From Candidatus Eiseniibacteriota bacterium (GTDB taxonomy: Bacteria; Eisenbacteria; RBG-16-71-46; DASYSL01), in contig DATFWU010000242.1 of NCBI GenBank assembly GCA_035259005.1, positions 1 through 56,723 on the forward strand: a stretch of DNA of 56,723 nucleotides, given 5' to 3'. This document shows, in pieces, positions 7,245 to 55,193 of this stretch. Positions within the stretch are counted from its first letter, which is position 1. Each line of letters begins with the position of its first letter. Position numbers and translations under genes: made by a program. The notes beneath the pieces were generated by a model. The model had not been told where the DNA came from. It made no database searches and was given only the letters and a program-made list of their open reading frames with translations.

Positions 7245-13191
<5,947 letters not shown>

Positions 13192-40616: not shown

Positions 40617-40690
40617 GTCCCCATCGTCTAGCCGGCCTAGGACCCCGCCCTTTCAAGGCGGAAACACGGGTTCGAATCCCGTTGGGGACA
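40617..40690 (+). tRNA. tRNA-Glu (anticodon UUC)
   Basis: Acceptor stem GTCCCCA/TGGGGAC, anticodon arm CCGCC-CTTTCAA-GGCGG (TTC), T arm ACGGG-TTCGAAT-CCCGT, discriminator A. CCA is not encoded. Confidence 0.9.
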
Positions 40691-40691
40691 T
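40671..40691 (+). repeat. att core copy 1 (tRNA 3-prime end) TTCGAATCCCGTTGGGGACAT
   Basis: Identical 21-mers occur at 47213..47233 and 50787..50807, all in the same orientation. Confidence 0.85.
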
Positions 40692-40833
40692 ACCCTTCCA
40701 TCTGTCTGCAAACCACTCGGAGCGAGTTCAAACCCAACGCTGAGAAGCGGATTGCTCGTAAGGCAGGCGAGGCGGAAGATCTCCTCCCGTGGGATCAGGA
40801 GCGATGCAGCTCGCCTGTACGGGAGGAGAGGGA

Positions 40834-41547
40834 ATGTCGTTGTTGCGCGAGGTGATCGCCGCACATGCACTGCGGTTCGAGCGGCCGATGCGCTCGACCT
40901 ACGATCCCGCGGTTGGCTCGCGCTTGCTGGTGGCTTTTGTGCTGGTAGGTCTGGCGTTGCAGCCTGCCCTCAGTTTTCTCGCGCGAGCCATAGGTCTCGC
41001 TCGGGAGCCTTGGGTGGGTTTGGCGATCGCAATCACACTCCTTACCGCTGTCGTCCTGGTGCTCCACCGGTTCGTTCGTGTAAGCGGCGGAGCCATCGGT
41101 TTGCACTCCTGGCGGGCTTGGACGCTGCGCGAGCGCATCTACATTTGGACAGTGGTCCCTCTAGCCGCTGTCATGTTCGGCATCCTATTTCGGGACCACT
41201 TTGCACGTCTGGCGGCAGTCCATGGCTGGATCGGCCTACTCGTGTTGACGGTGCCGACGGGGCTCCTCTGGGGCATGGTGCAGGAGTTCATCTATCGCGG
41301 CTTCCTGCAGACCGAACTCGTGCGACGTCTCGGTGGACTTTCGGGGATTCTGGTCGCCAATCTGGCGTACACCTTTGGGCCGCTACACTTCAGCTACCTC
41401 GGACTCGGTACGAACGCCGGAGCGCGGTGGGACATGTTCGCCGCGATCTTCGGCATCGGCTTATTCTTCGGCGTACTCTACAGGCGTTCGGGCAACCTCT
41501 GGATCCCTGCGGTGCTGCATGGGATGTGGCCACTCAACATGTCTTGA
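40834..41547 (+). CDS. CPBP-family intramembrane protease (CAAX/Abi type)
   Basis: ATG at 40834 with GGAGG upstream (residue 16 of the track ORF). It is multi-pass hydrophobic and has the motifs WGMVQEFIYRGFL, FGPLHF and AVLHGMWPLN. Confidence 0.7.
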   Translation: MSLLREVIAAHALRFERPMRSTYDPAVGSRLLVAFVLVGLALQPALSFLARAIGLAREPWVGLAIAITLLTAVVLVLHRFVRVSGGAIGLHSWRAWTLRERIYIWTVVPLAAVMFGILFRDHFARLAAVHGWIGLLVLTVPTGLLWGMVQEFIYRGFLQTELVRRLGGLSGILVANLAYTFGPLHFSYLGLGTNAGARWDMFAAIFGIGLFFGVLYRRSGNLWIPAVLHGMWPLNMS

Positions 41548-41614
41548 GAGCGCATCTTCCCGGGCTGCCGGCGACGCTCTCGAGAGGTTAGCGGTCGAGT
41601 TGAAACGCACCCGG

Positions 41615-42162
41615 ATGGACCTTGGCGCTTGGAAGTGGGCGATCGTCCTTGCTCACAACGCGACACAGAACGTTCTGGCCGATGCGGCTGGGTTCGATTG
41701 CCGCAAAGACACCAAGGAGATCGGCCGGGCCCTTAGCCAAGCTCGATTGGCCGTGAGCGAGGAGAGACACGGAGACTTTGCAGATGCGACTAACACCTAC
41801 ACCGAGGAGCTCCGGCGAGCGATCGGAAACGACGAGCCCACGGGAAGGTTGCTAGACTTTGTGGCCCTCTGGCAAACAGTCAAGACCGTGAGCGCATTGA
41901 AACGACCGTCGACGAAGACTCGCTGATCGAAAAGCTCAACCGTGAGCGGAACAAGTTTATCCATTTCGGAGCGGAACCGCTAACGATCGACCTTCGCAAC
42001 TATCCGAGTCTCGTGCTCAATGCCCTTCAGTTGATCCAGTTCCTTGTCTTTGAAAAGCGAATGTCCTTGTGGCTCGGTAGGGATGACGAGGCAACCAGGG
42101 CCGCCCTTGACGACTGTATCCGAACCACGTCTGAACTAATCGCCGAGTACGGCTCCCGTTGA
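41615..42162 (+). pseudogene. Frameshifted ORF with an RNxxxH (HEPN-like) motif
   Basis: Frame A (ATG 41615, stop 41924..41926) reads MDLGAWKWAIVLAHNATQNVLADAAG...LDFVALWQTVK. Frame B is open from 41794 to the stop at 42160..42162 and reads ...DRERIETTVDEDSLIEKLNRERNKFIHFGAEPLTIDLRNYPSLVLNALQLIQFLVFE...ELIAEYGSR. The two frames overlap over 41794..41926. One missing base near 41886..41890 would join them into about 182 aa. Confidence 0.4.
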
Positions 42163-42190
42163 GGAGGCCCCCGCTCGCAAAGTCTCGCAG

Positions 42191-43891
42191 TTAGCGGACC
42201 AGGACCGCCTTTGCTGTTGTTCCGCTTCCTGTAGCCCGCAGAAAATAGATGCCGTTCGCGAGTCGGCGTCCTGCGCCGTCCCGTCCATCCCAAACAAATG
42301 AATTGCCACTGCCGAAGGGCGCGTCGAACCGGGCGAGCAGCTTCCCTGCAACATCAAAGACCTGAAGGCGAGCTTTTTCGGGATGGTCACCGGCGTAATG
42401 AATCCTCCAGCCACCGGCGACCTCCTCACAGCGGAGCGAGTTCATCTCTGGATTCCGCACGGCGGCGCTGCCAGCAGTCTTGAGCTTTGCCAAGAAGTTC
42501 ACCGGCCGTCCCTGCACGCGCCCCGTGAGCACGAGATGTCCGCTGGCAAGCGCCTGCTCTTCTTCTGCACCCGGGGCGCGGAACCGAACATGCCAGCGCC
42601 CGCGACCGATACGCTTGATCTCCTCGGCGACCTGCAGGTCCTTCGCCGTGGCGCAGTTCATCATGCGCACAGAACCCGGTTGGATCTCGCCGTCGTCATC
42701 GAGTGTGACCGAGCCCCAGTGCCAGGGAGCGTTGCGCTGACCGGGCGCCGCGCCGTCCCATGCGAAGTCCGCTGGCTGCTCGATGCGCAGGAAGTACGCG
42801 TCCGAGCATGCGCCAATGGGAGCCCCACCAAAGGCGGTGCTCTCCGCGCCCGTCGTCACGAACATCTCGCCCGTACACGGGCAGTAGGCCCCGGCGGCGT
42901 CGTATCGGGCTCGCGATCGTTCTGGCCCGGCCAGAAGAAGGTCCCAGGTCTGCGAGGCAACGTCGAAAGCCCAGAGAGAATCGCTTGCCACCCCTCCCAG
43001 GCCATCCCGCCCCCCATACTGCAGGAAGATCCCCGAGACCGGGTCGTAATCGGACAAGGGCCAGGCCTGCCGCGCCGGACTTCCTGCGATCGCTCCCAAC
43101 CCTTGCCACGCTCCGTTTCGAGGGTCGAAAGCCCAGAGGGAATGGGGGGAGAGAGCCGCAGACTCCAGAAGGGTGGTAGAGAGCTCTGGAACCAAGTTTG
43201 GTGAGTCAAAGCAGCCTCGCGGGGGCGCTCCACCTCGAAGCAGAATCACTCCTCGCTGCGGGTCGAAGGGGGCGGCTGCCGATGTTGAACCGCCCGGAAG
43301 ATCACGCGGCGCCGCCGCCCCCCTCCACCGCAACTGCTCCTGATCGAAATGCGCGAAATACCAGTTGCAGGTGTTCGTTCCACACGCACCGAAGAACACC
43401 CAGGGATCGCCCGATCCCGTGTCGACGCTCATTCCGGAAAAGACTCCGGATGGAGCTCCGGGAGGTCCTGACGCGACGTGCTTCCATTGCTGTAATGACG
43501 CATCAAATCTCCACGGCCCGTCTGCGCATGTGTAATCCGGCTCCTTCCCCGGGACGTCGCCTCCGTACAGGTAGAAACCGTCCCCGCTTGCGTCAGCTGC
43601 CATACAGTGGGCAAGGCGTGGACCGGGCCAGGGATCGGATTTCGAAACTGACTCCCAACGCCCCGAAACGAGATCGTAGGACCAAAGGTCCTCGGTGGCA
43701 CGCAGGTCAGGGTCAGCGCTGGCGCCGGCGTAAAGAAGGATCTCCTGCCTCTTAGGGATCAGCACGGCACGCGCCACCACCCGCGGGCCACCGGGAAACG
43801 GCGCGGCTTCACGAAGGGTCTGGCCGAGCGCGATGACGGGAAAGAGGAGCGCGACGAGCGAGAGGAGAAGGTACCAGGGGATTCGCGCCAT
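42191..43891 (-). CDS. Kelch/beta-propeller repeat protein with T9SS-type C-terminal domain
   Basis: 566 aa with signal peptide MARIPWYLLLSLVALLFPVIALG and Kelch-like units (DLWSYDLVSGRWESV, GPRLAHCMAADASGDGFYLYGG). The C-terminus is ...RLQVFDVAGKLLARF...FVWDGRDGAGRRLANGIYFLRATG...AVLVR. Confidence 0.75.
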   Translation of the reverse strand: MARIPWYLLLSLVALLFPVIALGQTLREAAPFPGGPRVVARAVLIPKRQEILLYAGASADPDLRATEDLWSYDLVSGRWESVSKSDPWPGPRLAHCMAADASGDGFYLYGGDVPGKEPDYTCADGPWRFDASLQQWKHVASGPPGAPSGVFSGMSVDTGSGDPWVFFGACGTNTCNWYFAHFDQEQLRWRGAAAPRDLPGGSTSAAAPFDPQRGVILLRGGAPPRGCFDSPNLVPELSTTLLESAALSPHSLWAFDPRNGAWQGLGAIAGSPARQAWPLSDYDPVSGIFLQYGGRDGLGGVASDSLWAFDVASQTWDLLLAGPERSRARYDAAGAYCPCTGEMFVTTGAESTAFGGAPIGACSDAYFLRIEQPADFAWDGAAPGQRNAPWHWGSVTLDDDGEIQPGSVRMMNCATAKDLQVAEEIKRIGRGRWHVRFRAPGAEEEQALASGHLVLTGRVQGRPVNFLAKLKTAGSAAVRNPEMNSLRCEEVAGGWRIHYAGDHPEKARLQVFDVAGKLLARFDAPFGSGNSFVWDGRDGAGRRLANGIYFLRATGSGTTAKAVLVR

Positions 43892-44183
43892 GTCGGCCTC
43901 CTGACGCGACGGATGGATCTAAAGCTTATATCGCTTTCTTGCTTTGAACAAGACAGAATCCGAGAGCAGGCGCTCTGCTTCGGCACCCAGCAGGGAAGCG
44001 CCTTTAGAAAGGACACGTGGATTTTGGTCCCGGCGGTGAACGAGGGTTACTAGCGTCGTGCTCTTTCCTATGGCCCCCATCCACCCATACCGAGCGCCCG
44101 ACCATTGGGCCTGATCCCACCGCGCTGGTGAAATACAAGCACTCGAAGATGAGCACGTAACTGATCCACCCTCTACTCCCCGG

Positions 44184-44212
44184 TTGCGAGCTTTACACTA
44201 CTAAAGTAGTGT
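44184..44212 (+). promoter_or_regulatory. Promoter-like TTGCGA-N17-TAGTGT overlapped by the perfect palindrome ACACTAC-TAAA-GTAGTGT
   Basis: -35 at 44184..44189, -10 at 44207..44212, palindrome at 44195..44212. This is an AT-rich patch (48% GC for line 44161) about 60 nt upstream of the recombinase ATG. Confidence 0.35.
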
Positions 44213-44273
44213 TTAACCGATCACTCCTCTGCTTCGCGAATCCAATAGCTTACGAAGGCGAAGGAGGGTTCCC

Positions 44274-44858
44274 ATGAGCCCCAAAGGTAAAACTGAAGAC
44301 GGTCAGGAGATCCGCTGGCTCTCCCAGGACCAGGTGCGCCGTTTCCTAAACGCCATTCCGCAGGATGCGGTGCGGGACCGGCTGCTGTTCGCATTTCTGT
44401 ACCGGTTCGGCATGCGCGTGAGCGAAGCTTGTCTGCTCCCCGTTGAGGCTGTAGCCCGGAAACGCTGGGAGGTGACGATCCAGGGCCTCAAAGGTGGCCT
44501 CAGACGGACGTACACCGTGCCCCGAGACCTTCGGCCCTTGATCAAGTCGTGGAGGCCGTCAGGCGACACCTTCTTCGCCGGGAGGCAGGGTGGCTTGAGC
44601 CGGGTTCGGGTGTGGCAGCTCTTTCGCCAGTGCGCCGCCGAGGCGGGCATCCCGAAGGAATTCAATGTCCACAGCCTTCGACACTCGGCGGCCGTCCATG
44701 CGCTCGACGCTGGCCTGGCCACGGAAGACGTCCGCGACCTCCTTCGGCATCGTCGGCTCTCGACGACGGACGTCTACGCCAACCTGTCAACGCGAAGGCG
44801 CAATGACTACTTGGGGCGGCTGGAGCGGAGCGAGTCGATAGTCAAGATGCGCATGTGA
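44274..44858 (+). CDS. Tyrosine recombinase, catalytic domain only (194 aa)
   Basis: Catalytic residues in order: R (FGMRVSEA), K (GLKGG), HxxR (HSLRHSAA), H (LLRHRR), Y (TTDVYANL). RBS GGAGGG lies upstream of the ATG. There is no N-terminal core-binding domain. Confidence 0.85.
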   Translation: MSPKGKTEDGQEIRWLSQDQVRRFLNAIPQDAVRDRLLFAFLYRFGMRVSEACLLPVEAVARKRWEVTIQGLKGGLRRTYTVPRDLRPLIKSWRPSGDTFFAGRQGGLSRVRVWQLFRQCAAEAGIPKEFNVHSLRHSAAVHALDAGLATEDVRDLLRHRRLSTTDVYANLSTRRRNDYLGRLERSESIVKMRM

Positions 44859-45061
44859 AAGACGAACGACGGAAGCAGCCCAAGACCGGCGGCCTGCGCG
44901 GTTTGAGCGGCTGCAGGGCGAGCAGGAACTCCAGGCACCCGAAAACGGTAGAAGATTGGCAACCCGACACCTCGTGGGTGCCCTGGCCCCACCTACTCTT
45001 GATTGTGTCTCTAAACATCCGCCAGGGCAGCCCAGCCGCCATTCGCTTGGGATCGAAGAGA

Positions 45062-45685
45062 ATGACACTTGGGCCGCTTCTTCTCATTGCCGTGACTTGC
45101 GGAGCAGCCAACGCCTGCGCCAACGAGGCGCGCTCTACCGTCTCGTTGAGAATGGGGTATAGCTCGTCCTATGAGTTCAGCAACGATTGGAACCTCCCGA
45201 GTGAGGGCTCGAGCGAGTTCGTATACGAACATCCCTTGTCGAAACACGTCGTTCTCATGCCCTCGCTCGGGTATGCCCGGTATTCCGGCTCTCTTGGCAA
45301 TAACATCGGCGACAGTTGGAATGTCGCCGTGGACGTCGTGCCCGTGGGTCTCGGGCTAGCAGCCAGGACAGATCCGAGCCGCCCACTGGTATGGCGGGCT
45401 CGGGAGTCGTTGCTCTTGATCGGGTACCGCTGGAACTCCGAGCATTTCGGCATGTTTAGCGGCGACGTTTTCCCGCAGTTTGAGCATCGCGAAGAGTTGC
45501 TCCTAGGGCTGAAAATTGGTGGCGGGGTGGATCATTCAATTGGTTCGCATGGTGTCATTGGCGCTGGAATCGACTACCTTCTCAGCGAAGACATGGACGA
45601 AGGTCCAAGTTTCGGGCTTTCTGGCTTTGCCCATAAGGGATTGCGTCAATTCCAACCGTATTTGAGCTTGGGCTGGAGATGGTGA
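45062..45685 (+). CDS. Small predicted outer-membrane beta-barrel protein
   Basis: ATG at 45062 (residue 70 of the track ORF) gives the signal peptide MTLGPLLLIAVTCGAANACA. The protein has an alternating beta-strand pattern and the aromatic end ...YLSLGWRW. Confidence 0.5.
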   Translation: MTLGPLLLIAVTCGAANACANEARSTVSLRMGYSSSYEFSNDWNLPSEGSSEFVYEHPLSKHVVLMPSLGYARYSGSLGNNIGDSWNVAVDVVPVGLGLAARTDPSRPLVWRARESLLLIGYRWNSEHFGMFSGDVFPQFEHREELLLGLKIGGGVDHSIGSHGVIGAGIDYLLSEDMDEGPSFGLSGFAHKGLRQFQPYLSLGWRW

Positions 45686-46191
45686 TGACCTGGGGCGTCT
45701 GGGCCGGAGCCACGCAAGTCAAAATGCGCAGGAGAGAGACAAGCACGTAAGCAATAGGCACACTGCCCTCATCTGACGGGTTTCCTCTGTGTCTTCTCTC
45801 TGCCCCTCTCCCTGTCCACCAATGCCGGGTATCTCCCCACTCAGCCCTGCGCGCGCAAGACAAGCATCGCTTCGCCGTCGACGCCGTTGGAAGACAACCT
45901 CCACATCCAGGACAGTGCCGAAGGCGGTTTGCAGCCTGCCGCTTATGATGCGCAACCATCAGCTCCATCAGCTTCCTGGTGTCGGGCGTGCGACGTCGGG
46001 ATGGCCTCACGTATCGGACGTGCTTCCACATTCCTTCATCCCTCCCTGACTCGAGGATGCGACTCGGAGCATTCTGAGGATTGTGCGATTAGTGAGAGGC
46101 AGTCTCCGGCCCAACGCCGACCGTTGCGGGAATTGCTCGGTTCGAAGACCTGAGCTAGATTTTCTGCCGCACCTCGCCCACCGAAGTTGAC

Positions 46192-47073
46192 ATGTTCGGT
46201 CAAGCTAGACGAGTCGGTTTCTTCATCCTCATCCAGTTGAAGCAAACTTGCGAGGGTGCCGTGACAGGACTTCTGTTTTGCTTCGTACTCTCCATCACGT
46301 CCGCCTCCGGTACCCCCGTCACCAAACTGGATCTTCCAGCAACCATCGCCTTCGACGAGCGCACGCATCACCTCTTCATGTACGGTCACGAGATCCACAG
46401 CCCAGTGACGCTCGCCTACGACAAGGGCGACCTGGTCGCCAACGGGTTTCGTCCAAACCCTATCGTCGAAGACACGGCGAGAGCCGAATCGGTCGCAGCC
46501 CGCGTGTACAATGATGTGCCCTTCATTCAGGGGTTGCACGCGCAAGGCAAGAGCTACCGTGCGGCCGGACGTGAATACGAAACCGCATGGACGAAGACGG
46601 TTTATCGAGCCATGGGAGAGTTTCGTTCGGCTTGGATTGCCGGCGACTCGGCGAACGCTGAGCAACGGGCGAAAGCGGTCCTGGACACGAGCTTGATCGA
46701 CGTTGAGAGGACTCTCATCGGTGATCTCGGCTCGGCAGTAGTCCTGAAGGGTTTGGGGGACTCGCCGATCTATTGCTCAGCTCCTGATCGGACACCGACG
46801 CCGCCCCCGATGACCCCGGAAGAGCAGGAAGCGGACCGCCGCACCGGAGCCATGGACCAAGCCTGGGAGATCCAGTCCTTTCTCGTGACAGCCGATCAGG
46901 GTTTGATGGTGCTCGGGGGTCCGAAGGGTGGCGTTGGCATCGTCCAGCGCGGTGTCGGGGCATATGACGCGCTCGATGAGATCAAACGGTCAATCAAGTA
47001 CGGGGTGCCTGATGGCAGCGTAGTGCCTGAGGCGCTACTCAGGGAAATCATCGCCGCTCAGGCCCACCATTGA
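46192..47073 (+). CDS. Hypothetical protein
   Basis: 293 aa. Codon third positions are GC-biased in this frame and the composition is protein-like. I recognise no family. I prefer it over the antisense ORF 46036..46665. Confidence 0.5.
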   Translation: MFGQARRVGFFILIQLKQTCEGAVTGLLFCFVLSITSASGTPVTKLDLPATIAFDERTHHLFMYGHEIHSPVTLAYDKGDLVANGFRPNPIVEDTARAESVAARVYNDVPFIQGLHAQGKSYRAAGREYETAWTKTVYRAMGEFRSAWIAGDSANAEQRAKAVLDTSLIDVERTLIGDLGSAVVLKGLGDSPIYCSAPDRTPTPPPMTPEEQEADRRTGAMDQAWEIQSFLVTADQGLMVLGGPKGGVGIVQRGVGAYDALDEIKRSIKYGVPDGSVVPEALLREIIAAQAHH

Positions 47074-47076
47074 GCG

Positions 47077-47099
47077 GTGTGCGGGAATTGTGCGGGAAC
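47077..47099 (+). repeat. Tandem GTGCGGGAA motif pair (GTGTGCGGGAATTGTGCGGGAAC), island-end module A
   Basis: A 22/23-identical copy lies at 50649..50671. Both start within 4 nt of a plus-strand stop codon and sit 157-159 nt before the end of an att core. Confidence 0.7.
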
Positions 47100-47212
47100 G
47101 ATCCGGAGGAATAGGTACGAACGGCGCTCGAGGGGTACGTCGCACCGCCGTAAGTGGCTGATTACTCTGCATCGTCGCGTTTGTTATCCGACAGTTCCTT
47201 GCGGTCGGCCGA

Positions 47213-47233
47213 TTCGAATCCCGTTGGGGACAT
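47213..47233 (+). repeat. att core copy 2
   Basis: Exact 21-nt match to the tRNA-Glu 3-prime end. The match extends to 28 nt (47208..47235) with copy 3. Confidence 0.85.
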
Positions 47234-47782
47234 TCAGTAAACGCCAAAGATTCGCTTCCTCGGTCCGTTCCGGAAGCGCGCGGTGGCAAACGTGCCACCG
47301 TACTTCTTATAGGCGGGCTCCCCCTCGATTCGCAGCGAAACAAACTTGATCGGCGGCGACTGCGCAGCGTTGAGTATCACGCACCGCGCTGTCGCTGCCA
47401 CGATCATGTCGTAGGTAAAGTCATCCAGATCTCTTGGCGGCTTCGTGGCGCGGAGAGTGACGCGCAGCGTGTCGCCGAAGAGTGGCGGTTCCCGATTCGA
47501 GTTGGACGTCACCTCGACCCGAAGCCCCACGTCGAAAGCCGCGTTGCGTTGTTGCGGTCCGTACTGGGTGCTTACAAGGCTCGAGTCACATGTAGCGAGC
47601 ACCGCTAAGATGCCGACATCGTCGGAGTTGTACGTTAGTACCGTGACGCGGCTAAGCGAGAGGTCACTGAAGGACCAGATGGGTTGAAACGCCTCGAAGG
47701 ACCACTCCTCGGAACATAGCCCGCGGGATGATCCCACTGTCGTCAACGCCATCGCTAAGAGAAGCGCACCGGTTAATCTCAT
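47234..47782 (-). CDS. Hypothetical secreted protein
   Basis: ATG at 47782 (residue 16 of the track ORF) gives MRLTGALLLAMALTTVGSSRGLC. 182 aa. The stop abuts att core copy 2. Confidence 0.5.
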   Translation of the reverse strand: MRLTGALLLAMALTTVGSSRGLCSEEWSFEAFQPIWSFSDLSLSRVTVLTYNSDDVGILAVLATCDSSLVSTQYGPQQRNAAFDVGLRVEVTSNSNREPPLFGDTLRVTLRATKPPRDLDDFTYDMIVAATARCVILNAAQSPPIKFVSLRIEGEPAYKKYGGTFATARFRNGPRKRIFGVY

Positions 47783-47997
47783 CCCAGGCCCGCCCCAGGT
47801 GTCACGCAGCCATGATCCGGTCTCCATAGGTGTCGGCCCATGGCCGAAGGCACTTCACCGTGCAGAGGTGGTCCGAGAGGCTAAGTACACCGTGAGACAG
47901 CCCGTCTGGCTACGCCCCCCAGAAACGGTTCCACTCGCCTATGGGAGGGTCCGGACCTAGCCGCCGCAAGGACATTCGAGCCCAACCCAGGCCGGGT

Positions 47998-48159
47998 TCA
48001 GGCGACTCTTAGGCTATTCCGGAGGACTTGCAGGCTTCTGAGCCACGCCTCCAGCTGGTTCCAACTCGCGATAGTTGGGGACACCAAATTAGTGCCAGCC
48101 ACGGCCTGCAATTTGTTCCACACCAGGCTGCCGGAGAGGGAGATTTCCCTCTCGGGCAC
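47998..48159 (-). CDS. Mini-ORF 1 of the SWNQLE-WLRSL family (up to 53 aa; start uncertain)
   Basis: Hand translation gives ...SLVWNKLQAVAGTNLVSPTIASWNQLEAWLRSLQVLRNSLRVA*. Possible starts are GTG 48159, GTG 48102 and GTG 48084. The last 28 codons are homologous to mini-ORF 2 and end at the same aligned stop position. Confidence 0.35.
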   Translation of the reverse strand: MPEREISLSGSLVWNKLQAVAGTNLVSPTIASWNQLEAWLRSLQVLRNSLRVA

Positions 48160-48179
48160 ACTTCCGTCTACGAAGCTCT

Positions 48180-48208
48180 GCGGCGGGCCCGGGCTCGCTG
48201 CTTTTTTT
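48180..48208 (+). terminator. Rho-independent terminator (9-bp stem, CCGG loop, T7)
   Basis: GCGGCGGGC-CCGG-GCTCGCTGC (7 Watson-Crick plus 2 G-U pairs) followed by TTTTTTT. There is no plus-strand gene upstream. An 8-bp hairpin GAGAGGGA-GATT-TCCCTCTC lies at 48134..48153. Confidence 0.6.
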
Positions 48209-48641
48209 ATTGACCGGCGCGATGAGCGGGCTTTGAATTCGGGCGCATGGTCCCACCTGGTGCTGCCGGGCTTAGTTCCTCGAGAGCCTCCTCTCCTCTG
48301 ACACCCGGCGGAGAAGACTTGGTTCCCGCATCCGTGGTTCCTTTGGCGCGGGCCTGAGGTCTCGCTTCTCCCCGTGGTGTAGCCAATGCCTGCGCCGGTC
48401 AGACGATAGCGTCACGTCTTCGTGGCTTTGGCACAACGCAATCACGCTGGCACAGCTCATGTCGTCCTTGGCCGTCATTTCCGAGCGTCCTCGAACGTGA
48501 CCATCCGGTCGCGCGGCGCGAGAGCCGGATGACGGTGGCGCCGATCGCCGGAAACGAGGAGCTGCCACGACCCGCTGGGCTGCGGGCCTATTCCGGACGT
48601 CATCAAGCGTCCATTCTGAGTCACTCCAATGGAGACCCCCT

Positions 48642-50648
48642 ATGTTGCGCCGCCCCCAAGTCGCACTCGCCCTCGCGCTGTGTCTAGCGTTCCCCACATT
48701 CGCTCACGGGCAATCGCCCACGCCCGGGCCGGCGCCCGCGCCCGCAGACAAGGACACTCGACGCACCACGCCCGGCGGGAGCTCGTTCATCCTCCCCGCA
48801 GGGTGGACGATGACGACGAAAGACGCCCTCACCATCCTCATGCCCCCCGAGGACGACACGCACATTGCGATCGTCGACGTGAAGGCCAAGGACGCTGACG
48901 CCGCGGTCGCGGCAGGGTGGGCGGCGTACCAACCAGGCTTCAGCCGCCCCCTCAAGATCACCGTGCCTGAAGCGCCAACCGAGGGCTGGGAGGAGCGCAA
49001 GGACTACCAGTACGAGACGTCGCCGAACGAAGGAGTGTTCGTGGAGGCGGTGGCGTGGCGAGCGGGCGACACGTGGACGGTGTCGATCCTTGACGGCACC
49101 AAGTCTACGATCGAGAAGCGCGGGGGGCCCATTACGATCGTGGCCCAGAGCCTGCAGCCGAAGGGCTACACGCGCGAGTCGTTCGCCGGCAGGAAGGCGC
49201 ATCCGCTCGATGCCGAGCGGCTCAAGGTGCTCAAGGAGTTCGTCGCCAGCGGGATGAAGCAGCTCGAAATTCCGGGCGCGGGGATCGCGTTCATCGACGG
49301 CGGTAGGACGGTTCTTGCAGGCGGCCTGGGCGTGAAGCAGATGGGCAAGCCAGATCCGATCGATGCCAACACGCTGTTCATCGCCGCGTCGAACACCAAG
49401 GCGTTAACGACGCTGTTGCTCGCCATACTCGCCGACGAGAAGAAGCTGCGCTGGGATGAACCGGTCACGGAGTTATACCCCAGCTTCAAGCTCGGTGACG
49501 CAGTCACAACGAGAGAGGTGCTCGTGAAGCATCTCGTGTGCGCCTGCACCGGCATGCCGCGGCAAGACCTCGAGTTGGATATCGAGTACGAACACGAGAC
49601 ACCGGCCTCCGCGCTTCGGCTGCTCGGCACGATGCAACCGACGAGCAAGTTCGGTGAGGTGTTCCAGTACAGCAACCTCATGGCGGCCGCGGCCGGCTAC
49701 ATCGGCGGCGCCACCGCGCTGCCGGGGAAGGAGTTGGGCGCCGCCTATGACGAGGCAATGCGCACCAAGGTATTCGCGCCGCTCGGCATGACGACGTCGA
49801 CGTTCGACTTCGCCAAGGCTATGCGAGGCGACCACGCCTCGTCGCACGGAGACGACGTGGACGGGAAGCAGGCGCTCGCGCGGATGGACCGCGCCTACTC
49901 CGTGTACCCATTTCGCCCCGCCGGTGGGCTGTGGACGAGCGCGAACGAGCTGGCCAAGTACGTCGAGATGGAACTCGCGAAGGGCATGCTGCCCAACGGC
50001 AAGCGGTTGGTGTCGGAGGAGAACCTACTCGCGCGCTATATACCGCAGGTCGCCGTGAGCGATGGCGTGAACTACGGCATGGCGCTGATCGTCGACACGA
50101 AGTACGGCATCCAGGTGGTGCACCATGGCGGCGACTTCGTGGGATACCACAGCGACATGATCTGGTTGCCCGAGTACGGCGTCGGCGCGGTGATTCTCAC
50201 CAACTCCGAATCGGGCTTTCTCATTCTCGAACCGCTGCGGCGGAAGGTGCTCGAGGTGCTGTTTGACGGCAAGCCCGAGGCTGACGCTGCGCTCGCCACT
50301 GCGGCGAAACAGCGAAAGGAGGCGTTCGCGAAGGACCGCGAACGCCTCGTCGTCCCGGCCGACGCGGCCGCGGTCGCGAAGCTGGCAACGCGCTACGTGA
50401 ACGCGTCGCTAGGCGCAGTAGCGGTGGAGAAGCAGGGCGCCAGAACCCTGTTCGACGTGGGAGGGTGGAAGAGTGCCGTCGCGTCGCGCAAGAACGAGGA
50501 CGGAACGATTTCGTTCATAACGATCGACCCCACGGTCTCGGGCTTCGAGTTTGTGGTCGCGGATTCCGTTGGTGCCCGTCGCCTCATCATGCGCGACGCG
50601 CAACACCAATACGTGTTCGCGGAGGCGAAGGCGCCGAAGCGACCCTAG
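48642..50648 (+). CDS. Secreted serine hydrolase, class C beta-lactamase / PBP4* family, with extra N- and C-terminal domains
   Basis: 668 aa with signal peptide MLRRPQVALALALCLAFPTFAHG, SxxK in FIAASNTKAL, YxN in QYSNLMA and a third motif HHGG. Confidence 0.85.
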   Translation: MLRRPQVALALALCLAFPTFAHGQSPTPGPAPAPADKDTRRTTPGGSSFILPAGWTMTTKDALTILMPPEDDTHIAIVDVKAKDADAAVAAGWAAYQPGFSRPLKITVPEAPTEGWEERKDYQYETSPNEGVFVEAVAWRAGDTWTVSILDGTKSTIEKRGGPITIVAQSLQPKGYTRESFAGRKAHPLDAERLKVLKEFVASGMKQLEIPGAGIAFIDGGRTVLAGGLGVKQMGKPDPIDANTLFIAASNTKALTTLLLAILADEKKLRWDEPVTELYPSFKLGDAVTTREVLVKHLVCACTGMPRQDLELDIEYEHETPASALRLLGTMQPTSKFGEVFQYSNLMAAAAGYIGGATALPGKELGAAYDEAMRTKVFAPLGMTTSTFDFAKAMRGDHASSHGDDVDGKQALARMDRAYSVYPFRPAGGLWTSANELAKYVEMELAKGMLPNGKRLVSEENLLARYIPQVAVSDGVNYGMALIVDTKYGIQVVHHGGDFVGYHSDMIWLPEYGVGAVILTNSESGFLILEPLRRKVLEVLFDGKPEADAALATAAKQRKEAFAKDRERLVVPADAAAVAKLATRYVNASLGAVAVEKQGARTLFDVGGWKSAVASRKNEDGTISFITIDPTVSGFEFVVADSVGARRLIMRDAQHQYVFAEAKAPKRP

Positions 50649-50671
50649 GTGTGCGGGAACTGTGCGGGAAC
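50649..50671 (+). repeat. Tandem GTGCGGGAA motif pair, island-end module B
   Basis: GTGTGCGGGAACTGTGCGGGAAC starts on the base after the TAG stop of the hydrolase gene. Confidence 0.7.
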
Positions 50672-50786
50672 TACCTACCGGCAAGTGAAACTATCAGTCG
50701 CCATCTGCGTCGCCCGGTGGGTGCAAGTCGTTGGATGAACTCGATTGGCCACGATTGGTGTCCGTTGGTTCCCGCGATGTTGCCGA

Positions 50787-50807
50787 TTCGAATCCCGTTG
50801 GGGACAT
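50787..50807 (+). repeat. att core copy 3
   Basis: Exact 21-nt match to the tRNA-Glu 3-prime end. Confidence 0.85.
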
Positions 50808-50981
50808 TCCTCCACGGGGAACAGTTACTCCGAGCTGCTTGAATGCCTCGGAGGAACCCAATCGACTCCCGTCGGCCGCGCCCGCCCCACGCCCTCGCGC
50901 ACGCTCGTCGCCGAGCATCGCGTATCGCTGAGTCATGGCGATGGACACATTGGGTGCGGTGGTGCTTCTCGACGCTTCGAC

Positions 50982-52052
50982 TCACTTCGCTTCGAACTGC
51001 CTGCCGCGCGCAAGCACAGCGACGTCGATGTTCTGAAACTTGAACGGTAGTCCCTGATCGACGAAGAGCCGTGGGCCCGACTGAAGCTGATAGTGCAGGT
51101 GTGGCCCGAATGCGTTTCCCGAGTTCCCCAGCTTTCCGATCACCTGGCCGGCGGCGACTCGATCCCCGACCTTGACCATGACGGACCCTTCTTGCATGTG
51201 CATCATGACGCTGAACTCCGAATTGCCGTGGTCGATGATGACGCAGTTGCCAGCCCACGCCATCACCGGGTCGTGCAGCGCCGCGTACAACGTATCGTCC
51301 CTTCCGGGATGTGGATTGTCGGGCACGTCATTGCGCGCGTAGGTCACGGTTCCAGCCGCGGGCGCCAGGATCTCGCGGCCCCAACCGGCGGCGGATGCGT
51401 TTTCTTGGGCTTGGCTTTTCTGCTCTGCCCCGTTCTCGCCGAGGCCGCGCAGGTCGATCGCGAAGTCGGCCCCCCAGTTGCCACCGCCGCCATGGCCTCC
51501 GTTCGTGATCCAGTCCTGCCCGACCACGCCGTTGCCGCGAAAAGGCACGATGAGCGACGTCTTCTGCTGATAGTACTGAACCGGGATCATCAAGGTCCGT
51601 TCCGCCATCCGACCCTTCGCGTCCGCGACCTTCACCCGCACTTCTGCCGACCCGATCCTCAGCGCCTGCGGGCAGCGGAAATAGAAGTGGAGGTCGAAGG
51701 CTTCGGGCAACGTGAGCATGCGCCGGGGCGACGACAACGGAGTATCCGACTCGATCCGATAGTGCTCCCCTTTCATCTTCGCCAACGGCTCGGTCGGCCA
51801 CTCCTGCCGCTCGACGATCGAATGGCCATCCGAGAGCTGCACGCTCGCAGAAATCGGCGTGAGCACGGAATCGGTGGAGCAAATCACCGCGACGTCGAAC
51901 ACGAACGTCGACGTTTCGGTGTTCCCCGGGTCGTCCACCTTGTAGACGATCGCCGGAACGACCTGCAGACGAAAATCCGGTTGAGCGGCCCCAGCGGACC
52001 GAGCGACAACCAGGGATGCAAGCAGAAAGAGCAGCGGCAGGACTCGACTCAT
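50982..52052 (-). CDS. Secreted M23-family metallopeptidase
   Basis: ATG at 52052 (residue 117 of the track ORF) gives the signal peptide MSRVLPLLFLLASLVVARSAGA. The C-terminal LytM domain shows DHGNSEFSVMMHMQEGSVMVKVGDRVAAGQVIGKLGNSGNAFGPHLHYQL. Confidence 0.8.
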   Translation of the reverse strand: MSRVLPLLFLLASLVVARSAGAAQPDFRLQVVPAIVYKVDDPGNTETSTFVFDVAVICSTDSVLTPISASVQLSDGHSIVERQEWPTEPLAKMKGEHYRIESDTPLSSPRRMLTLPEAFDLHFYFRCPQALRIGSAEVRVKVADAKGRMAERTLMIPVQYYQQKTSLIVPFRGNGVVGQDWITNGGHGGGGNWGADFAIDLRGLGENGAEQKSQAQENASAAGWGREILAPAAGTVTYARNDVPDNPHPGRDDTLYAALHDPVMAWAGNCVIIDHGNSEFSVMMHMQEGSVMVKVGDRVAAGQVIGKLGNSGNAFGPHLHYQLQSGPRLFVDQGLPFKFQNIDVAVLARGRQFEAK

Positions 52053-52333
52053 GGTGCGCACCTCCGGCGTATCCGACAAGGCGAGTGCCCGGAAGGTTGG
52101 AACACCCTTCACCGGCAAATCGGTCGAGAGGGGCAGCGCGCCCTCCAAGCAATCGAGTGGCATCGAGGGCCCATCTGGCGCGCGAATCTGAGTGAGCCCT
52201 GAGCCGATTCCCCCATCTAAACGGGGTATCCTCTGCGCGTATGAGCCCCGAAGAAGCATGCGGTTCCATTCGCGCCTGGGAGCGCACCAACATCGGCGGC
52301 TCGCCTGAAATCGGGCACTTGGCCCAGGGACAT

Positions 52334-52453
52334 CTACGCGACTCTGAGGTTCTCTCGCAGCGCCTGTAGGCTCCTCAGCCAGCCTAGCAGTTGGTTCCAA
52401 CTCGAGGTGGTAGGGGACAATCCGCTAATGACTCTGCGGTCCCGCGGCAACAC
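52334..52453 (-). CDS. Mini-ORF 2 of the SWNQLE-WLRSL family (39 aa from GTG)
   Basis: VLPRDRRVISGLSPTTSSWNQLLGWLRSLQALRENLRVA*. It is in the same frame as the DUF4279-like gene, and its GTG is 6 codons after that gene's TGA. Confidence 0.4.
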   Translation of the reverse strand: MLPRDRRVISGLSPTTSSWNQLLGWLRSLQALRENLRVA

Positions 52454-52471
52454 ACAGAGCCAGCCACTTAG

Positions 52472-52894
52472 TCATTGTCCTTCTCTCGCTCCGGTGGGGT
52501 ACGTGGAGAGTTCGATGCCCATGCCGAGAGCCCCAGCAGCCTTGATGAGTTCGGGTGGCAGATAATCGAACTGCGCGACGACGTTCTCACCGATCCGAAG
52601 CTCAATCGGGAAATCAAGGCGCATGTCTTCGACGGTCGACAACGCGGCAAGAGCGCGCAGTTCACCCGCGTGGCGTTCGAGGAAGGCGCACGCATCGGAG
52701 ACCTGTCCGGGAAGGTTCGACCAAGCTGCATGGCTTACCTCGACGCGGAAGCCGGAAGTAGAATACACAGATCCGTCAGATCTAAACGGAGCCCGAGGGT
52801 CACCAGCCTTGTAGGCCATGTAGGGGTGCAGACCTGATGTTCGGAGAAACTCCTCGACATCGAAATTCGAACCCGTCACGCGCAGCACGCACAT
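52472..52894 (-). CDS. DUF4279-like small cytoplasmic protein
   Basis: 140 aa. The pattern VLRVTGSNFDVEEFLRTSGLHP...KAGDP...W...FLERHAGELRAL...DFPIEL...LPPELIKAAGALGMGIELSTY matches my recollection of the DUF4279 layout. There is no signal peptide. Confidence 0.55.
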   Translation of the reverse strand: MCVLRVTGSNFDVEEFLRTSGLHPYMAYKAGDPRAPFRSDGSVYSTSGFRVEVSHAAWSNLPGQVSDACAFLERHAGELRALAALSTVEDMRLDFPIELRIGENVVAQFDYLPPELIKAAGALGMGIELSTYPTGAREGQ

Positions 52895-52964
52895 GGTTGA
52901 TCCTTTCGCCTCACGGGCCAGAAGCTCTTTCTGCTGGAAGCTTCATCGTAACTTCTGGCCGCGT

Positions 52965-53030
52965 TCATGGTGCGCTTCGGCACCCGTCCAAGCTCCTGAG
53001 CCACACTTCAAGCTGATTCCAACTCGGCAT
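52965..53030 (-). CDS. Mini-ORF 3 of the SWNQLE-WLRSL family (21 aa)
   Basis: ATG at 53030, with an in-frame TAA four codons upstream. It reads MPSWNQLEVWLRSLDGCRSAP*. Its stop lies 70 nt upstream of the DUF4279-like start. Confidence 0.35.
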   Translation of the reverse strand: MPSWNQLEVWLRSLDGCRSAP

Positions 53031-53249
53031 AAAGGGACATCCTTACCCCCACTTGCCGCACAACGCGAGCGAATCAGAGTCGGCCTCCTCGAGCCCAAGT
53101 TTTCTCAATGGTTGGCTGTTGCATTTCTCGCTTCGCGAGGGATAGGCTCATTTTCGGCCCGGGACAGATGGCCCGCAGGTGCCTTCGGCGCAGCGGAGCA
53201 GCGAGCCTTTCTCGCAGCATCCCACGACACGTCGCGCGCGGAGGCCGAA

Positions 53250-54956
53250 ATGAAGTTCTTCCAGCGCGTAGTTTACACATCACTATTTCCTCTTCTCTTC
53301 GCTCTTTTCTGTCCCACCGAGTCCCATGCCTGGGCTCGCGACGGAACTCCGGTTGCCATTGGTCCGCAAAGCCAGGTTCAACCGAAAGTCGTCGGCGCCG
53401 ACGACGGCGGCGCCTTCGTTGTTTGGACCGATCAAGGCACGCACCCAGGATCCGGCTCAGACTACGTCGTCCTGGCCCAGAAGCTGGGACCCGGGGGAGC
53501 AAGCGAGTGGGAGGAGTCGGGAGTGCGGGTCGGTTTCACCGCAGGGGCGCAGAGCCTGGCGCAGCTCGCCTCGGACGATCAGGGCGGCGTCATCGTTGCG
53601 TGGAGCCAGTTTGATGCAAGCGGTTCCAATGCGGCGGTCTATGCGCAGAGATTCACCGCCAAAGGCCAGCGGTTGTGGGGAGATCAGGGCGTGCGCCTTG
53701 CCCCACTCGAGGCGAGCACAGACTTCGCCCTGGTGGGCGATGGCGCGGGAGGCGCTTTCACCGTTGGCGACACCCTTGTCCGCGACGACTCCCTTTCTGG
53801 CTATGACCGTCGCCTTCTGCTTCAGCATGCCGGCGACCGGGGTCAACTCCTGTGGCCGGCAGGCGCCTTGCGCGTGAGCGAAGGTCGAGGCTCACAATTT
53901 GAGCCAAAGGCGGTTCCCGACGGCCACGGCGGCGTCATCGTCGCCTGGATCGATGGGCGCGACCTGTTCCCCGGTGGGTTCAATGCCGACGTATACGCTC
54001 AACGCTTCACGGGTGACGGAAGCAGGCTATGGCTCTCGACGGGCGCACCGGTTTGCCTGAACAAGGCGCCGCAATGGTCACTGGCGGTCATTGCCAGGCC
54101 GTCAGGCGGTATCGACCTGGCTTGGGCGGACACGCGCAAATATCCTCTCTTCCAATATCAAGTCTATGCCCAAGCATTGGATGAGAACGGCGAGCCGCGC
54201 TGGACTCAGGACGGCGTTCTCGTCAGCCCCTACGGCGAGCAGGGGGCGGCTGCACTGGCCGACGACGGAGCCGACGGCATCATCGTCGCCTGGAACGAGT
54301 TTCAGGCGCCCAGCTACGCCATACACATCTTCGCTCAACATCTGGATGCATCAGGCTCCGCCCTCTGGCAGGTGGGTGGGATTACTCTCTCGCAGCCTCG
54401 CGGCGGGTCCTCCATTGTCTCGGACGGCGAAGGAGGGGCCATCGTCCTGCTGTCCGGGGAACAGGCAGTCATCCAACACGTGTCGGGTGAAGGCGCCTTG
54501 CTGCAGTCGGAGGTTCTCTCGCCCAGCGCGGACGGATACGGCGCTCTGACCTCGACTAAGAACCAGTTCATCGCCGTCTGGGGTGACGTGCGCAACGGTC
54601 CGGACGACATCGATGTCTATGCGGCGCGGTTCAAGCCGTCTCCGAGCCACGTGCCACCGTCGCTCACCATTCGCGAGAGCGAAACTCCGCAAACCAGAAC
54701 GGGGGATCTCTCTCTCACTGTCTCCCCTAATCCGGCAAGCGGCCGATTCACGGTGTCCGCCGCCACCACAGGTGGACTTCCGGCTCGTCTCTCGGTTTTC
54801 GATATCCACGGTCGCTTGGTGATGGGTCGTGATCTGAGCGCGGGCGCCATGTCGATGACCGCGGGAGCTCGGGAGCGTCTCGAGCCTGGTATCTATCTTG
54901 TGGTGGTAGAGCAAGGAAAGACGAAGGCCGTGCAGCGAATTTGTCTCTTGCCCTGA
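53250..54956 (+). CDS. Secreted repeat (beta-propeller-like) protein with T9SS-type C-terminal domain
   Basis: ATG at 53250 (residue 120 of the track ORF) with GGAGG upstream. Signal-like start MKFFQRVVYTSLFPLLFALFCPTESHA. There are about 8 repeats of the form DGxGGxIVAWxD...VYAQR. The C-terminus is LTVSPNPASGRFTV...LSVFDIHGRLV...PGIYLVVVEQGKTKAVQRICLLP. Confidence 0.7.
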   Translation: MKFFQRVVYTSLFPLLFALFCPTESHAWARDGTPVAIGPQSQVQPKVVGADDGGAFVVWTDQGTHPGSGSDYVVLAQKLGPGGASEWEESGVRVGFTAGAQSLAQLASDDQGGVIVAWSQFDASGSNAAVYAQRFTAKGQRLWGDQGVRLAPLEASTDFALVGDGAGGAFTVGDTLVRDDSLSGYDRRLLLQHAGDRGQLLWPAGALRVSEGRGSQFEPKAVPDGHGGVIVAWIDGRDLFPGGFNADVYAQRFTGDGSRLWLSTGAPVCLNKAPQWSLAVIARPSGGIDLAWADTRKYPLFQYQVYAQALDENGEPRWTQDGVLVSPYGEQGAAALADDGADGIIVAWNEFQAPSYAIHIFAQHLDASGSALWQVGGITLSQPRGGSSIVSDGEGGAIVLLSGEQAVIQHVSGEGALLQSEVLSPSADGYGALTSTKNQFIAVWGDVRNGPDDIDVYAARFKPSPSHVPPSLTIRESETPQTRTGDLSLTVSPNPASGRFTVSAATTGGLPARLSVFDIHGRLVMGRDLSAGAMSMTAGARERLEPGIYLVVVEQGKTKAVQRICLLP

Positions 54957-55193
54957 AGCGAAGTCTCGGGGGTGAGTGCCGGACCGTCGCCCGGCACCTC
55001 CGAGCCGTCTGTCCTTCGAGCTCGCCGGCTCTGTGCGGTACCCGCAGATGCCTTTCGACTACACGCCACTTCAGACTCTTCTGAACCTGGAGGAACCATG
55101 GATCAATGTTCAACCGATCAAATCTACGCCCGACCTGGTCCGGCGCAGGAACTACCGGAGCCCAGATAAGAGGACACCGCCGCAGTTCCTTTT

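Follow-up and report, generated by a model that had tools for sequence, protein, structure and literature searches.

Three coding repeats downstream of a tRNA-Glu gene in Candidatus Eiseniibacteriota are probably orphaned attachment-site arms of integrative elements

Tandem accretion of integrase-less derivatives at tRNA genes is a known property of cis-mobilisable elements. We analyzed a stretch of 56,723 nucleotides from a Candidatus Eiseniibacteriota bacterium (NCBI GenBank assembly GCA_035259005.1, contig DATFWU010000242.1, positions 1 to 56,723 of the forward strand; the whole stretch is hereafter called the window), in which three short repeats with a coding frame lie downstream of a tRNA-Glu gene. 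Several described systems are relevant to this locus. Genomic islands of the Islander type, which are ordinary, are linked to tRNA genes and carry displaced tRNA 3' fragments (PMC4383910). The SSV-type archaeal integrases, also termed type I or 'suicidal', have the attachment (att) site of the element, attP, inside the open reading frame (ORF) of the integrase, an arrangement that has been described as exclusively archaeal (PMC7253208, PMC8371274). In the mycobacteriophages BPs and Brujita, integration-dependent immunity rests on an attP within the repressor gene, and integration removes 33 residues from the protein (PMC4557955); the tail of the repressor is there said to end in an ssrA-like, destabilising sequence (Broussard et al. 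2013, via PMC4557955). Finally, RAP44-like phages of Riemerella anatipestifer carry attP inside the integrase gene; once they have integrated at the 3' end of tRNA-Ser, attL holds the bulk of that gene and attR a terminal piece of 43 bp (PMC12169736).

The three repeats of the window are direct, co-oriented copies of about 85 nt each (48002-48083, 52338-52419 and 52989-53039), which share 72-81% identity and have an open coding frame on the minus strand. The initial annotation had presented them as mini-ORFs, for which it proposed either a role as leader peptide, small adaptor or antitoxin-like partner, or an origin as conserved 3' gene ends left behind by serial cassette exchange. The last of these suggestions was essentially correct. 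We think it probable that the three repeats are orphaned attR-type arms of integrative elements which entered the 3' end of the tRNA-Glu gene one after another. Repeat comparison found all three as they had been described, and an nhmmer profile built from homologues matched the 56.7 kb of the window exactly three times (E = 9e-20, 8e-18 and 1e-14). The 13-mer TGRTTCCAACTCG likewise occurs three times with zero mismatches. All three copies are backed by repeat comparison, translation and the nhmmer profile, and consist of the following parts.

47998..48086, minus strand: copy 1, probable orphan attR-type arm
48074-48086: core of copy 1, GTTGGGGACACCA, equal to the tRNA-Glu acceptor 3' strand plus discriminator base plus CCA
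48001-48073: arm of copy 1, encoding ...IASWNQLEAWLRSLQVLRNSLRVA, with its stop codon at 47998-48000
52334..52419, minus strand: copy 2, probable orphan arm, encoding ...TSSWNQLLGWLRSLQALRENLRVA, with its stop codon at 52334-52336
52410-52419: degenerate core of copy 2, GTAGGGGACA, without CCA
52965..53039, minus strand: copy 3, the most decayed of the probable orphan arms
53031-53039: core remnant of copy 3, AAAGGGACA, separated from the arm by a 2-nt indel

Translation of the minus strand reproduced the three peptides given in the initial annotation, and comparison of the copies supports the view that the repeat is coding sequence that evolved under selection at the amino-acid level. Over 27 aligned sense codons, copies 1 and 2 differ by synonymous changes only at 11 codons and by non-synonymous changes at 7, which agrees with the earlier hand count, and their base differences at codon positions 1, 2 and 3 number 3, 5 and 15. 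The stop codons, TGA in copy 1 and TAG in copy 2, occupy the identical aligned position and similarity is gone past codon 29, so that the exact end of homology noted before was confirmed. Both peptides have VA as their C-terminal residues. In copy 3 the tail is shortened (...SWNQLEVWLRSLDGCRSAP*) and the frame is broken ahead of SWNQ; decay grows from copy 1 to copy 3. When 17 copies from diverse sources were compared, Trp, Asn and Gln were invariant in the arm, the hydrophobic codons kept T at the second base while the first and third were free, Leu and Arg were each drawn from both of their codon families, and Ser switched families too. An RNAalifold consensus reached -0.63 kcal/mol with 0 compensatory pairs and thus gave no conserved structure. 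The proposal that an apparent intergenic repeat is minus-strand coding sequence therefore stands, and the larger set likewise points to selection on the peptide, with substitutions spread unevenly over codon positions. Conservation of the frame holds for most orphan copies in arrays; it does not hold for copy 3 or for the array copy L005_1465, whose 1-nt deletion in a homopolymer may be a sequencing error.

The putative target of the insertions lies 7 kb upstream of the copies.

40617..40690, plus strand: tRNA-Glu(TTC) gene, integration target on the attB/attL side (Rfam 62 bits; ARAGORN)

This gene ends in ...TTCGAATCCCGTTGGGGACA with no encoded CCA, and directly behind it the DNA becomes less GC-rich (about 60%, against about 70% before). 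On the plus strand, the end of every copy is the acceptor 3' strand of this tRNA: copy 1 has GTTGGGGACA and then CCA, copy 2 has GTAGGGGACA, which agrees with the tRNA end at 9 of 10 positions, and copy 3 keeps the remnant AAAGGGACA. The copies thus are direct repeats of the tRNA 3' end, in the orientation of the tRNA and downstream of an intact tRNA gene. A contig of a related organism, L028, shows the same relation more clearly. Its tRNA-Glu ends in ...GTTGGGGACACCA, and 2 kb downstream there is a copy, 93% identical to window copy 1, that has exactly these 13 nt at its end in the same orientation. The shared 13 nt identify the copy as a direct repeat of att type, derived from the 3' end of the tRNA. 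In L028 a homologue of window 47234-47827 (L028 504-1055, 75% amino acid identity) is found directly beside tRNA-Glu and the segment 40691-47233 is absent, which makes this segment an insertion relative to L028; it also explains why the tRNA-Glu of the window has lost the encoded CCA that L028 has kept. The segments bounded by the copies differ in content between the window and L028, with 1.4 kb of additional sequence in L028; an empty site was not encountered.

Homologues of the repeat are widespread in metagenomes. A protein search with the three window peptides alone found two proteins, and sensitivity was gained with a profile made from copies that had been harvested with a codon-degenerate DNA pattern. 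Matches of this pattern were due to chance in 4 of 7 cases in genomes and in about 8 of 20 in metagenomes; the true homologues come from metagenome-assembled genomes (MAGs) of Anaerolineaceae, Acidobacteriota and Eisenbacteria and from about a dozen further soil and sediment contigs, and none was found in IMG/VR. A profile of 19 peptides then matched 804 proteins in soil and sediment metagenomes, all of them unnamed. Its remark that no described family contains the peptide is true of the curated libraries Pfam and NCBIfam, where no family matched, and fails for the protein collection, given these 804 entries. Among the 120 of them that were listed, lengths range from 25 to 93 amino acids and nearly all entries are unnamed or "hypothetical". 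Their N-terminal parts are heterogeneous, and the module, with the conserved peptide SWNQLxxWLRxLxxLRxAA*, always forms the final 26 or so residues. In 204 of 236 module-bearing proteins exactly 8 residues follow WLRx, and 86% of the 217 short-tailed ones (16 residues or fewer after WLRx) end in Ala (AA 61%, VA 20%). The structure prediction that had been suggested gave a single amphipathic helix for the tail (mean pLDDT 85, conserved part 91-94).

The first seven or so codons of the module split into subfamilies, each corresponding to a tRNA 3' end, NCCA included, read in antisense. In the VSP... subfamily it is the antisense of GGGGAC(A/G)CCA, the end of tRNA-Glu, and in the VSR/VSQ... subfamily TGGTGAGCCGC is the antisense of GCGGCTCACCA, with which the tRNA-Lys(CTT) gene of L031 ends on its 3' side. 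Since the cores are antisense tRNA ends, the conserved NTG-GTG that resembles a start is the complement of the discriminator base and CCA. Moreover, the core tracks the target: Glu-type cores occur near tRNA-Glu (window, L028), and Lys-type cores are the antisense of tRNA-Lys(CTT) (L031, L032, L037). A further type of core is VDQ (..CTGGTCCACCA); one protein, P0305 (111 aa), has a serine-recombinase-like fragment (..PLITEDLFYRVQSVL..) ahead of a VDQ-type module. Another, P0003 (39 aa), consists of two modules head-to-tail, VSQTFTSWNQIAGWL-SRIFVSWNQLDGWLRQVDGLRGAA, and its sequence suggests recombination between modules inside the conserved SWNQ...WL region.

In several proteins of the family, the catalytic end of a tyrosine integrase lies upstream of the module. 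In P0198, ...LGHSQVSLTLDTYSHVLPSLQAQAASTLDAAIG-linker-VVSR is continued by LGIEPRTRRLRVCCSAN*, an ending which is exactly antisense frame 2 of tRNA-Lys, whereas its siblings P0070, P0122, P0124 and P0145 share integrase tail and linker and end in VSR-IFASWNQLDGWLRQVExLRRAA*. An exhaustive search of 1.84 billion representatives added integrase lineages with an intact HxLRH...LGH...Y in frame into the module (P0245, P0220, P0246, P0241, P0304, P0191 and P0199) as well as the further attL forms P0256, P0234 and P0225. At the DNA level, the integrase ORF 65-553 (+) of L032 overlaps an intact tRNA-Lys (489-564, minus strand) in an attL arrangement, as does ORF 3803-4210 of L037 with tRNA-Lys c4146-4221, while in L033, L038 and L031 the end of the integrase continues physically into the module. 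The integrase domain of the family is PF00589 (precomputed). As the same integrase tails can lead either into the module or into antisense tRNA-Lys, the integrase ORF of the module family has no stop before the att core, and the arm next to the core, whichever it is, provides the C-terminus. With the core placed 40-55 residues past the catalytic Tyr, the exchange affects a tail of about 22 residues and leaves the catalytic domain whole. A different integrase lineage is found at tRNA-Lys in L034 and L035 (around 3030-3075 and 7880-7925), with a longer identity block of about 45 nt from the anticodon loop to CCA; one of these integrase copies stops about 100 nt ahead of the tRNA fragment, so that ORF-crossing and non-crossing arrangements occur at the same tRNA species.

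These observations can be combined in the following model. Each repeat would be made of a core copied from the tRNA 3' acceptor strand (GTTGGGGACA, to which copy 1 adds CCA) and of an element arm of about 70 nt, which would represent the last 22 or so codons and the stop codon of the tyrosine-integrase gene of the element. The ORF of the integrase would read through the core without a stop before attP. In the attP-type state, be it unintegrated or at a tandem junction, the enzyme would end in the amphipathic helix SWNQLxxWLRxLxxLRxAA. In the integrated state the body of the integrase would lie by the tRNA and end in the antisense translation of the tRNA, for a Glu-type integrase at attL presumably in ...VSPTGFEPVFPP*, and the old tail would be left behind at the opposite end of the element, beside local cargo. 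The tails in the window, which are detached from any integrase, are most likely relics. Their coding signature would be inherited from the function of the integrase C-terminus, and a divergence rich in synonymous changes is to be expected if the arms had evolved as translated integrase in separate lineages beforehand. We infer that the Glu-type copies of the window had the origin in integrase genes that is demonstrable for the Lys type, a step for which the argument is homology of the module, because no integrase adjoins these copies and no retrieved integrase has a Glu-type core.

A number of findings weigh against this account. The window contains no integrase or integrase remnant next to the tRNA or to any copy, and a cognate integrase at the tRNA-proximal end of an element was seen at the family level only (L032, L037). 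Among the 324 proteins retrieved, a Glu-type core was never seen attached to an integrase. Searches of 5.8 billion word-indexed proteins, 1.84 billion representatives, plasmids, phages and, by pattern, IMG/VR yielded no full-length integrase with the module; the module-bearing or attL-form integrases among the 150 best matches are all 210 amino acids or shorter, and the two that were inspected are decayed pseudogenes. The unintegrated form had no match in the plasmid, phage or IMG/VR collections. That integrase and module occur in frame is, moreover, partly a selection effect of searching with proteins. Two loci do not fit a plain attR: the module of L031 points the opposite way to the tRNA-Lys near it, and the Lys-type modules of L030 are found 5' of a tRNA-Glu. 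Finally, the dense arrays of one or two genes without integrases in L005, L030 and the window could stem from a cassette-like process.

The last point deserves attention, since the module could be the recombination site of integrase-less cassettes, comparable in function to integron attC sites or cis-mobilisable elements and captured one at a time at tRNA genes by an integrase acting in trans, and the arrays could reflect active cassette traffic instead of decayed full elements. Arrays of co-oriented modules with differing cargo are found in L005 (4 copies), in L030 (at least 4, beside tRNA-Glu) and in L019. Modules spaced 0.6-1.5 kb apart with one or two small genes each, many of them toxin-antitoxin pairs (L005, L030, window), fit such a system, as does the fact that no integrase lies between them. 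A unit of about 270 nt (about 90 aa), made of a degenerate integrase 3' end, linker and module, also fits; it recurs with 80-92% amino acid identity in more than 70 protein clusters and looks like a propagating non-autonomous derivative. These units together with the dense arrays of L005 and L030 suggest that non-autonomous, cassette-like derivatives dominate the module family. There is, however, no attC-like hairpin, the window yielded no integron integrase, attI site or common promoter, and neither a circular cassette nor an empty site is in evidence; the reading is also compatible with an origin of the module as integrase tail and does not exclude it. As an explanation of its own we regard it as unlikely. 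Quite improbable, in our view, are stand-alone genes for mini-proteins of about 29 residues that start at NTG/GTG and act as leader, adaptor or antitoxin-like partner. Such genes would account for the strong conservation of the peptide, for an NTG at a fixed position, often after a purine-rich GAAGG/GGAAG, for the confidently predicted helix, for the co-oriented gene that follows each window copy and for the mostly intact frames of orphan array copies. Yet NTG-GTG is the antisense of the discriminator base and CCA, whose conservation needs no translation; some copies lack any possible start codon and are preceded by a stop at a distance of 3-8 codons (3 in L019_1850), copy 3 is frame-broken and L005_1465 has its deletion; the neighbours of the L005 copies lie on either strand; and no promoter-like site was found. 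An independent conserved start or ribosome-binding site was not seen. Purifying selection on the peptide was, and it is equally well explained because the peptide is the C-terminus of integrase ORFs. The roles first proposed for stand-alone mini-ORFs thus lack support.

By far the least probable explanation, and one already largely refuted, is a non-coding repeat with an incidental frame, that is a structured small RNA, a REP/MITE-like element or a degenerate pseudo-tRNA. The tRNA-like 3' end with NCCA, the T-loop-like string GGTTCCAAC and REP-like hairpins beside some copies (L001, L005) are what speaks for it. Against this, RNAalifold gave neither conserved structure nor compensatory pairs, Rfam had no match and ARAGORN called no tRNA at the copies, the spacing leaves no room for a T-arm, and substitutions show a period of three with codon-family switches for Leu, Arg and Ser. 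Narrower candidates were dropped as well. For a pseudo-tRNA, the distance from GGTTCCAAC to the acceptor strand is 5 nt too long, T-stem and 5' acceptor strand are lacking, and ARAGORN and Rfam are blank. For an integron attC, the CCAAC...GTTGG boxes of copy 1, which had suggested R'' and R', are just 8 nt apart, their pairing is not kept in other copies, and there is no consensus fold. Pairing of the 11-13 nt that are complementary to the tRNA end, in the manner of a primer-binding site or T-box, was given up since direct repeats of the tRNA and read-through of the integrase suffice. The C-terminus of a chromosomal protein-coding target gene was rejected because there is no gene body past the outermost copy. 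Finally, no integrase remnant lies upstream of copy 3, where a tblastn match of P0241 (53249-52977) was driven by the module alone.

Beyond the orphaned arms themselves, the locus carries a second, unrelated class of att sequence and a number of accessory genes.

40691..47233, no strand: inserted segment of 6.5 kb directly 3' of the tRNA (GC drop, 21-nt repeat, absence from L028)
44274..44858, plus strand: tyrosine recombinase of 194 aa, catalytic domain alone (PF00589, E = 5.8e-27)
47076..47235, plus strand: second att class, copy a, about 160 nt (alignment with 50648-50809, L017 and L029)
47234..47827, minus strand: cargo, secreted protein of unknown function (no Pfam match)
48642..50648, plus strand: cargo, beta-lactamase-fold protein of 668 aa (PF00144, E = 1e-51)
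50648..50809, plus strand: second att class, copy b (GTGCGGGAA twice as arm, and a 21-nt tRNA-Glu fragment at 50787-50807)
50982..52053, minus strand: cargo, secreted M23 peptidase (PF01551, E = 2.6e-19)
52472..52894, minus strand: cargo, DUF4279-like protein of 140 aa (PF14106, 22.8 bits, below the cut-off of 25)

The 6.5-kb insert is flanked by a 21-nt direct repeat of the tRNA from T-loop to 3' end (40671-40691 and 47213-47233) and encodes, according to Pfam, a CAAX protease, a Kelch/FlgD_ig protein, the small tyrosine recombinase and others. This recombinase is the sole recombinase gene of the island region, adjoins none of the three copies and has no similarity to the module-bearing integrases. 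The 21-nt tRNA copy, TTCGAATCCCGTTGGGGACAT, recurs at 47213-47233 and 50787-50807, each time as the right end of a conserved element of about 160 nt that opens with tandem GTGCGGGAA. In copy a, which is the right end of the insert, the tandem arm motif lies at 47076-47099; in copy b, the motif abuts the stop codon of the beta-lactamase-fold gene. The motif begins 0-2 nt past the stop codon of the upstream plus-strand gene in both window copies. Further members of this class are found at L017 3464-3617 and around L029 300-456; all share a conserved TTGGTGTCCG..GGTTCC box and are unrelated to the module.

Along the plus strand, tRNA-Glu is followed by the 6.5-kb insert with copy a of the second class at its end, the gene of the secreted protein, copy 1, the beta-lactamase-fold gene, copy b, the M23 peptidase gene, copy 2, the DUF4279-like gene, copy 3 and flanking sequence, so that the pair of second-class sites and the three module copies are intermixed. 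Serial insertions at tRNA-Glu have made a mosaic of the sequence from 40.7 to at least 53.0 kb, and the stack is best read as the work of two att classes at a single tRNA. Older insertions would lie further from the tRNA, which fits the increase in decay from copy 1 to copy 3. The variable region probably reaches past copy 3 to at least 55.0 kb, since the strain variant L017, 99.5% identical to window 51583-55040, diverges beyond this point; there (L017 3458-3711), right after a gene with a T9SS tail, it runs into its second-class copy. The neighbours named in the initial annotation were found again, the secreted protein here at 47234-47827, the M23 peptidase and a weak DUF4279 match, with the beta-lactamase-fold gene on the opposite strand. 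Their position, with a copy upstream of each co-oriented gene, is correct for all three window copies and not a rule for the family, as the genes in the L005 array lie on either strand. We suggest treating the M23 peptidase, the beta-lactamase-fold, the DUF4279-like and the secreted proteins as accessory, horizontally acquired cargo.

Some features were seen beside the copies and arrays. Between copy 1 and the beta-lactamase-fold gene, which are 560 nt apart, a strong terminator-like hairpin (48180-48210, plus strand; 9 bp, 7 of 9 GC) is followed by T7, with no obvious gene upstream of it on the plus strand. The 4-5 co-oriented modules each of L005 614-3365 and L030 6296-11908, spaced by 0.6-1.5 kb, have VapBC-like, HigB/Gp49-HTH and DUF4926/DUF6883 pairs between them, a layout resembling an integron cassette array, and a PF07508 Recombinase gene (L030 2472-3044) lies near the L030 array. 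GC-rich REP-type hairpins are found directly by the core side of the module in two unrelated contigs (L001, about 230-350; L005, about 540-625), for example GCTCGCC-TTCG-GCGAGC between CGAAGG and CCTTCG, with compensatory differences in the stem. In the unit of about 90 aa (P0070, P0109, P0121-P0139 and others; locus L030 10001-10273), TLDTYSH is changed to ISMPDSH.

If the three repeats are the orphaned arms we take them to be, hundreds of metagenomic "hypothetical proteins" of 25-90 amino acids that end in ...SWNQLxxWLRxLxxLRxAA would not be genes of their own and would be junction artefacts, which arise where flanking sequence, the tRNA-derived core and an integrase tail meet. The module would then mark with precision where integrative elements end and where tRNA-linked hotspots of accretion lie in uncultured soil bacteria. 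Moreover, an attP within the integrase, which reviews call archaeal, would appear in bacteria in a milder form, in which the tail is exchanged and the enzyme is not destroyed. By analogy, the exchange could couple the stability of the integrase, through its Ala-Ala end, or its oligomerisation to the state of integration; this link becomes directly testable, as with the repressor in integration-dependent immunity. A more far-reaching idea, to which we give somewhat less than an even chance, is that a widespread family of bacterial tyrosine integrases from soil and sediment (Acidobacteriota, Chloroflexota, Eisenbacteria and others) with an ORF across attP uses the swap between the Ala-Ala-terminated helix and a tRNA-antisense tail as a sensor of the integration state, and that the stranded tails bound integron-like arrays. 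The swap would then control stability or assembly of the integrase and provide directionality without a separate factor, and the stranded tails would perhaps also serve as recombination sites in arrays of toxin-antitoxin and accessory cassettes by tRNA genes. Should this be true, the family would be a non-suicidal bacterial counterpart of the archaeal SSV-type integrases.

Compared with tRNA-linked islands, the window has the same intact tRNA at one end and direct repeats of the tRNA 3' end at successive element ends, the same compositional shift, for the 6.5-kb segment a presence/absence difference from a relative, and the same stacking of segments at one tRNA. It differs in that the element arm by the core is coding sequence conserved across phyla and in that most segments hold a single gene and no integrase. 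Integron arrays also have co-oriented repeats, of about 85 nt in our case, between small cargo genes that are often toxin-antitoxin pairs. In contrast to integrons, the repeat here is coding with a tRNA-derived core, a folding inverted repeat (R''-L''...L'-R') with the hairpin symmetry of attC is absent, as are IntI, attI and Pc, and the only recombinase of the region is the 194-aa PF00589 protein.

With the SSV-type integrases the module family shares an integrase ORF that spans the att core, so that the core is translated, and a separation of the ORF pieces to opposite ends of the element on integration, with orphan pieces accumulating as pseudogenes. The defining features of that type are missing: the split falls 40-55 residues past the catalytic Tyr and detaches a tail of about 22 aa from an undivided catalytic domain, which is not 'suicidal', the domain is PF00589 and not PF16795 (Phage_integr_3), and the hosts are bacterial MAGs (Acidobacteriota, Chloroflexota, Eisenbacteria). 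The family thus shares the principle of the SSV type without belonging to it. In BPs and Brujita, as described in PMC4557955, a gene with a tRNA target likewise contains attP some 30 codons before its 3' end, integration also changes the C-terminus, the removed tail also has an ssrA-like, Ala-rich end, and the stranded 3' fragment also reads inward from attR; the resemblance of the module tail to an ssrA-like degron is one of sequence. There the gene is a phage repressor, here it would be an integrase, and our family had no phage or IMG/VR matches. The RAP44-like phages have the bacterial attP-in-integrase principle in common with the module family; integrase, tRNA and phylum are different, and PMC12169736 reports neither a conserved peptide module nor a multi-phylum family. 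The feature in the window is itself an ordinary consequence of serial integration at a tRNA gene, and the mechanism proposed for the family is a variation on the already known principle of an attP inside the integrase ORF. What the family adds to the described systems is a tail module conserved in several phyla and its accumulation as orphan copies.

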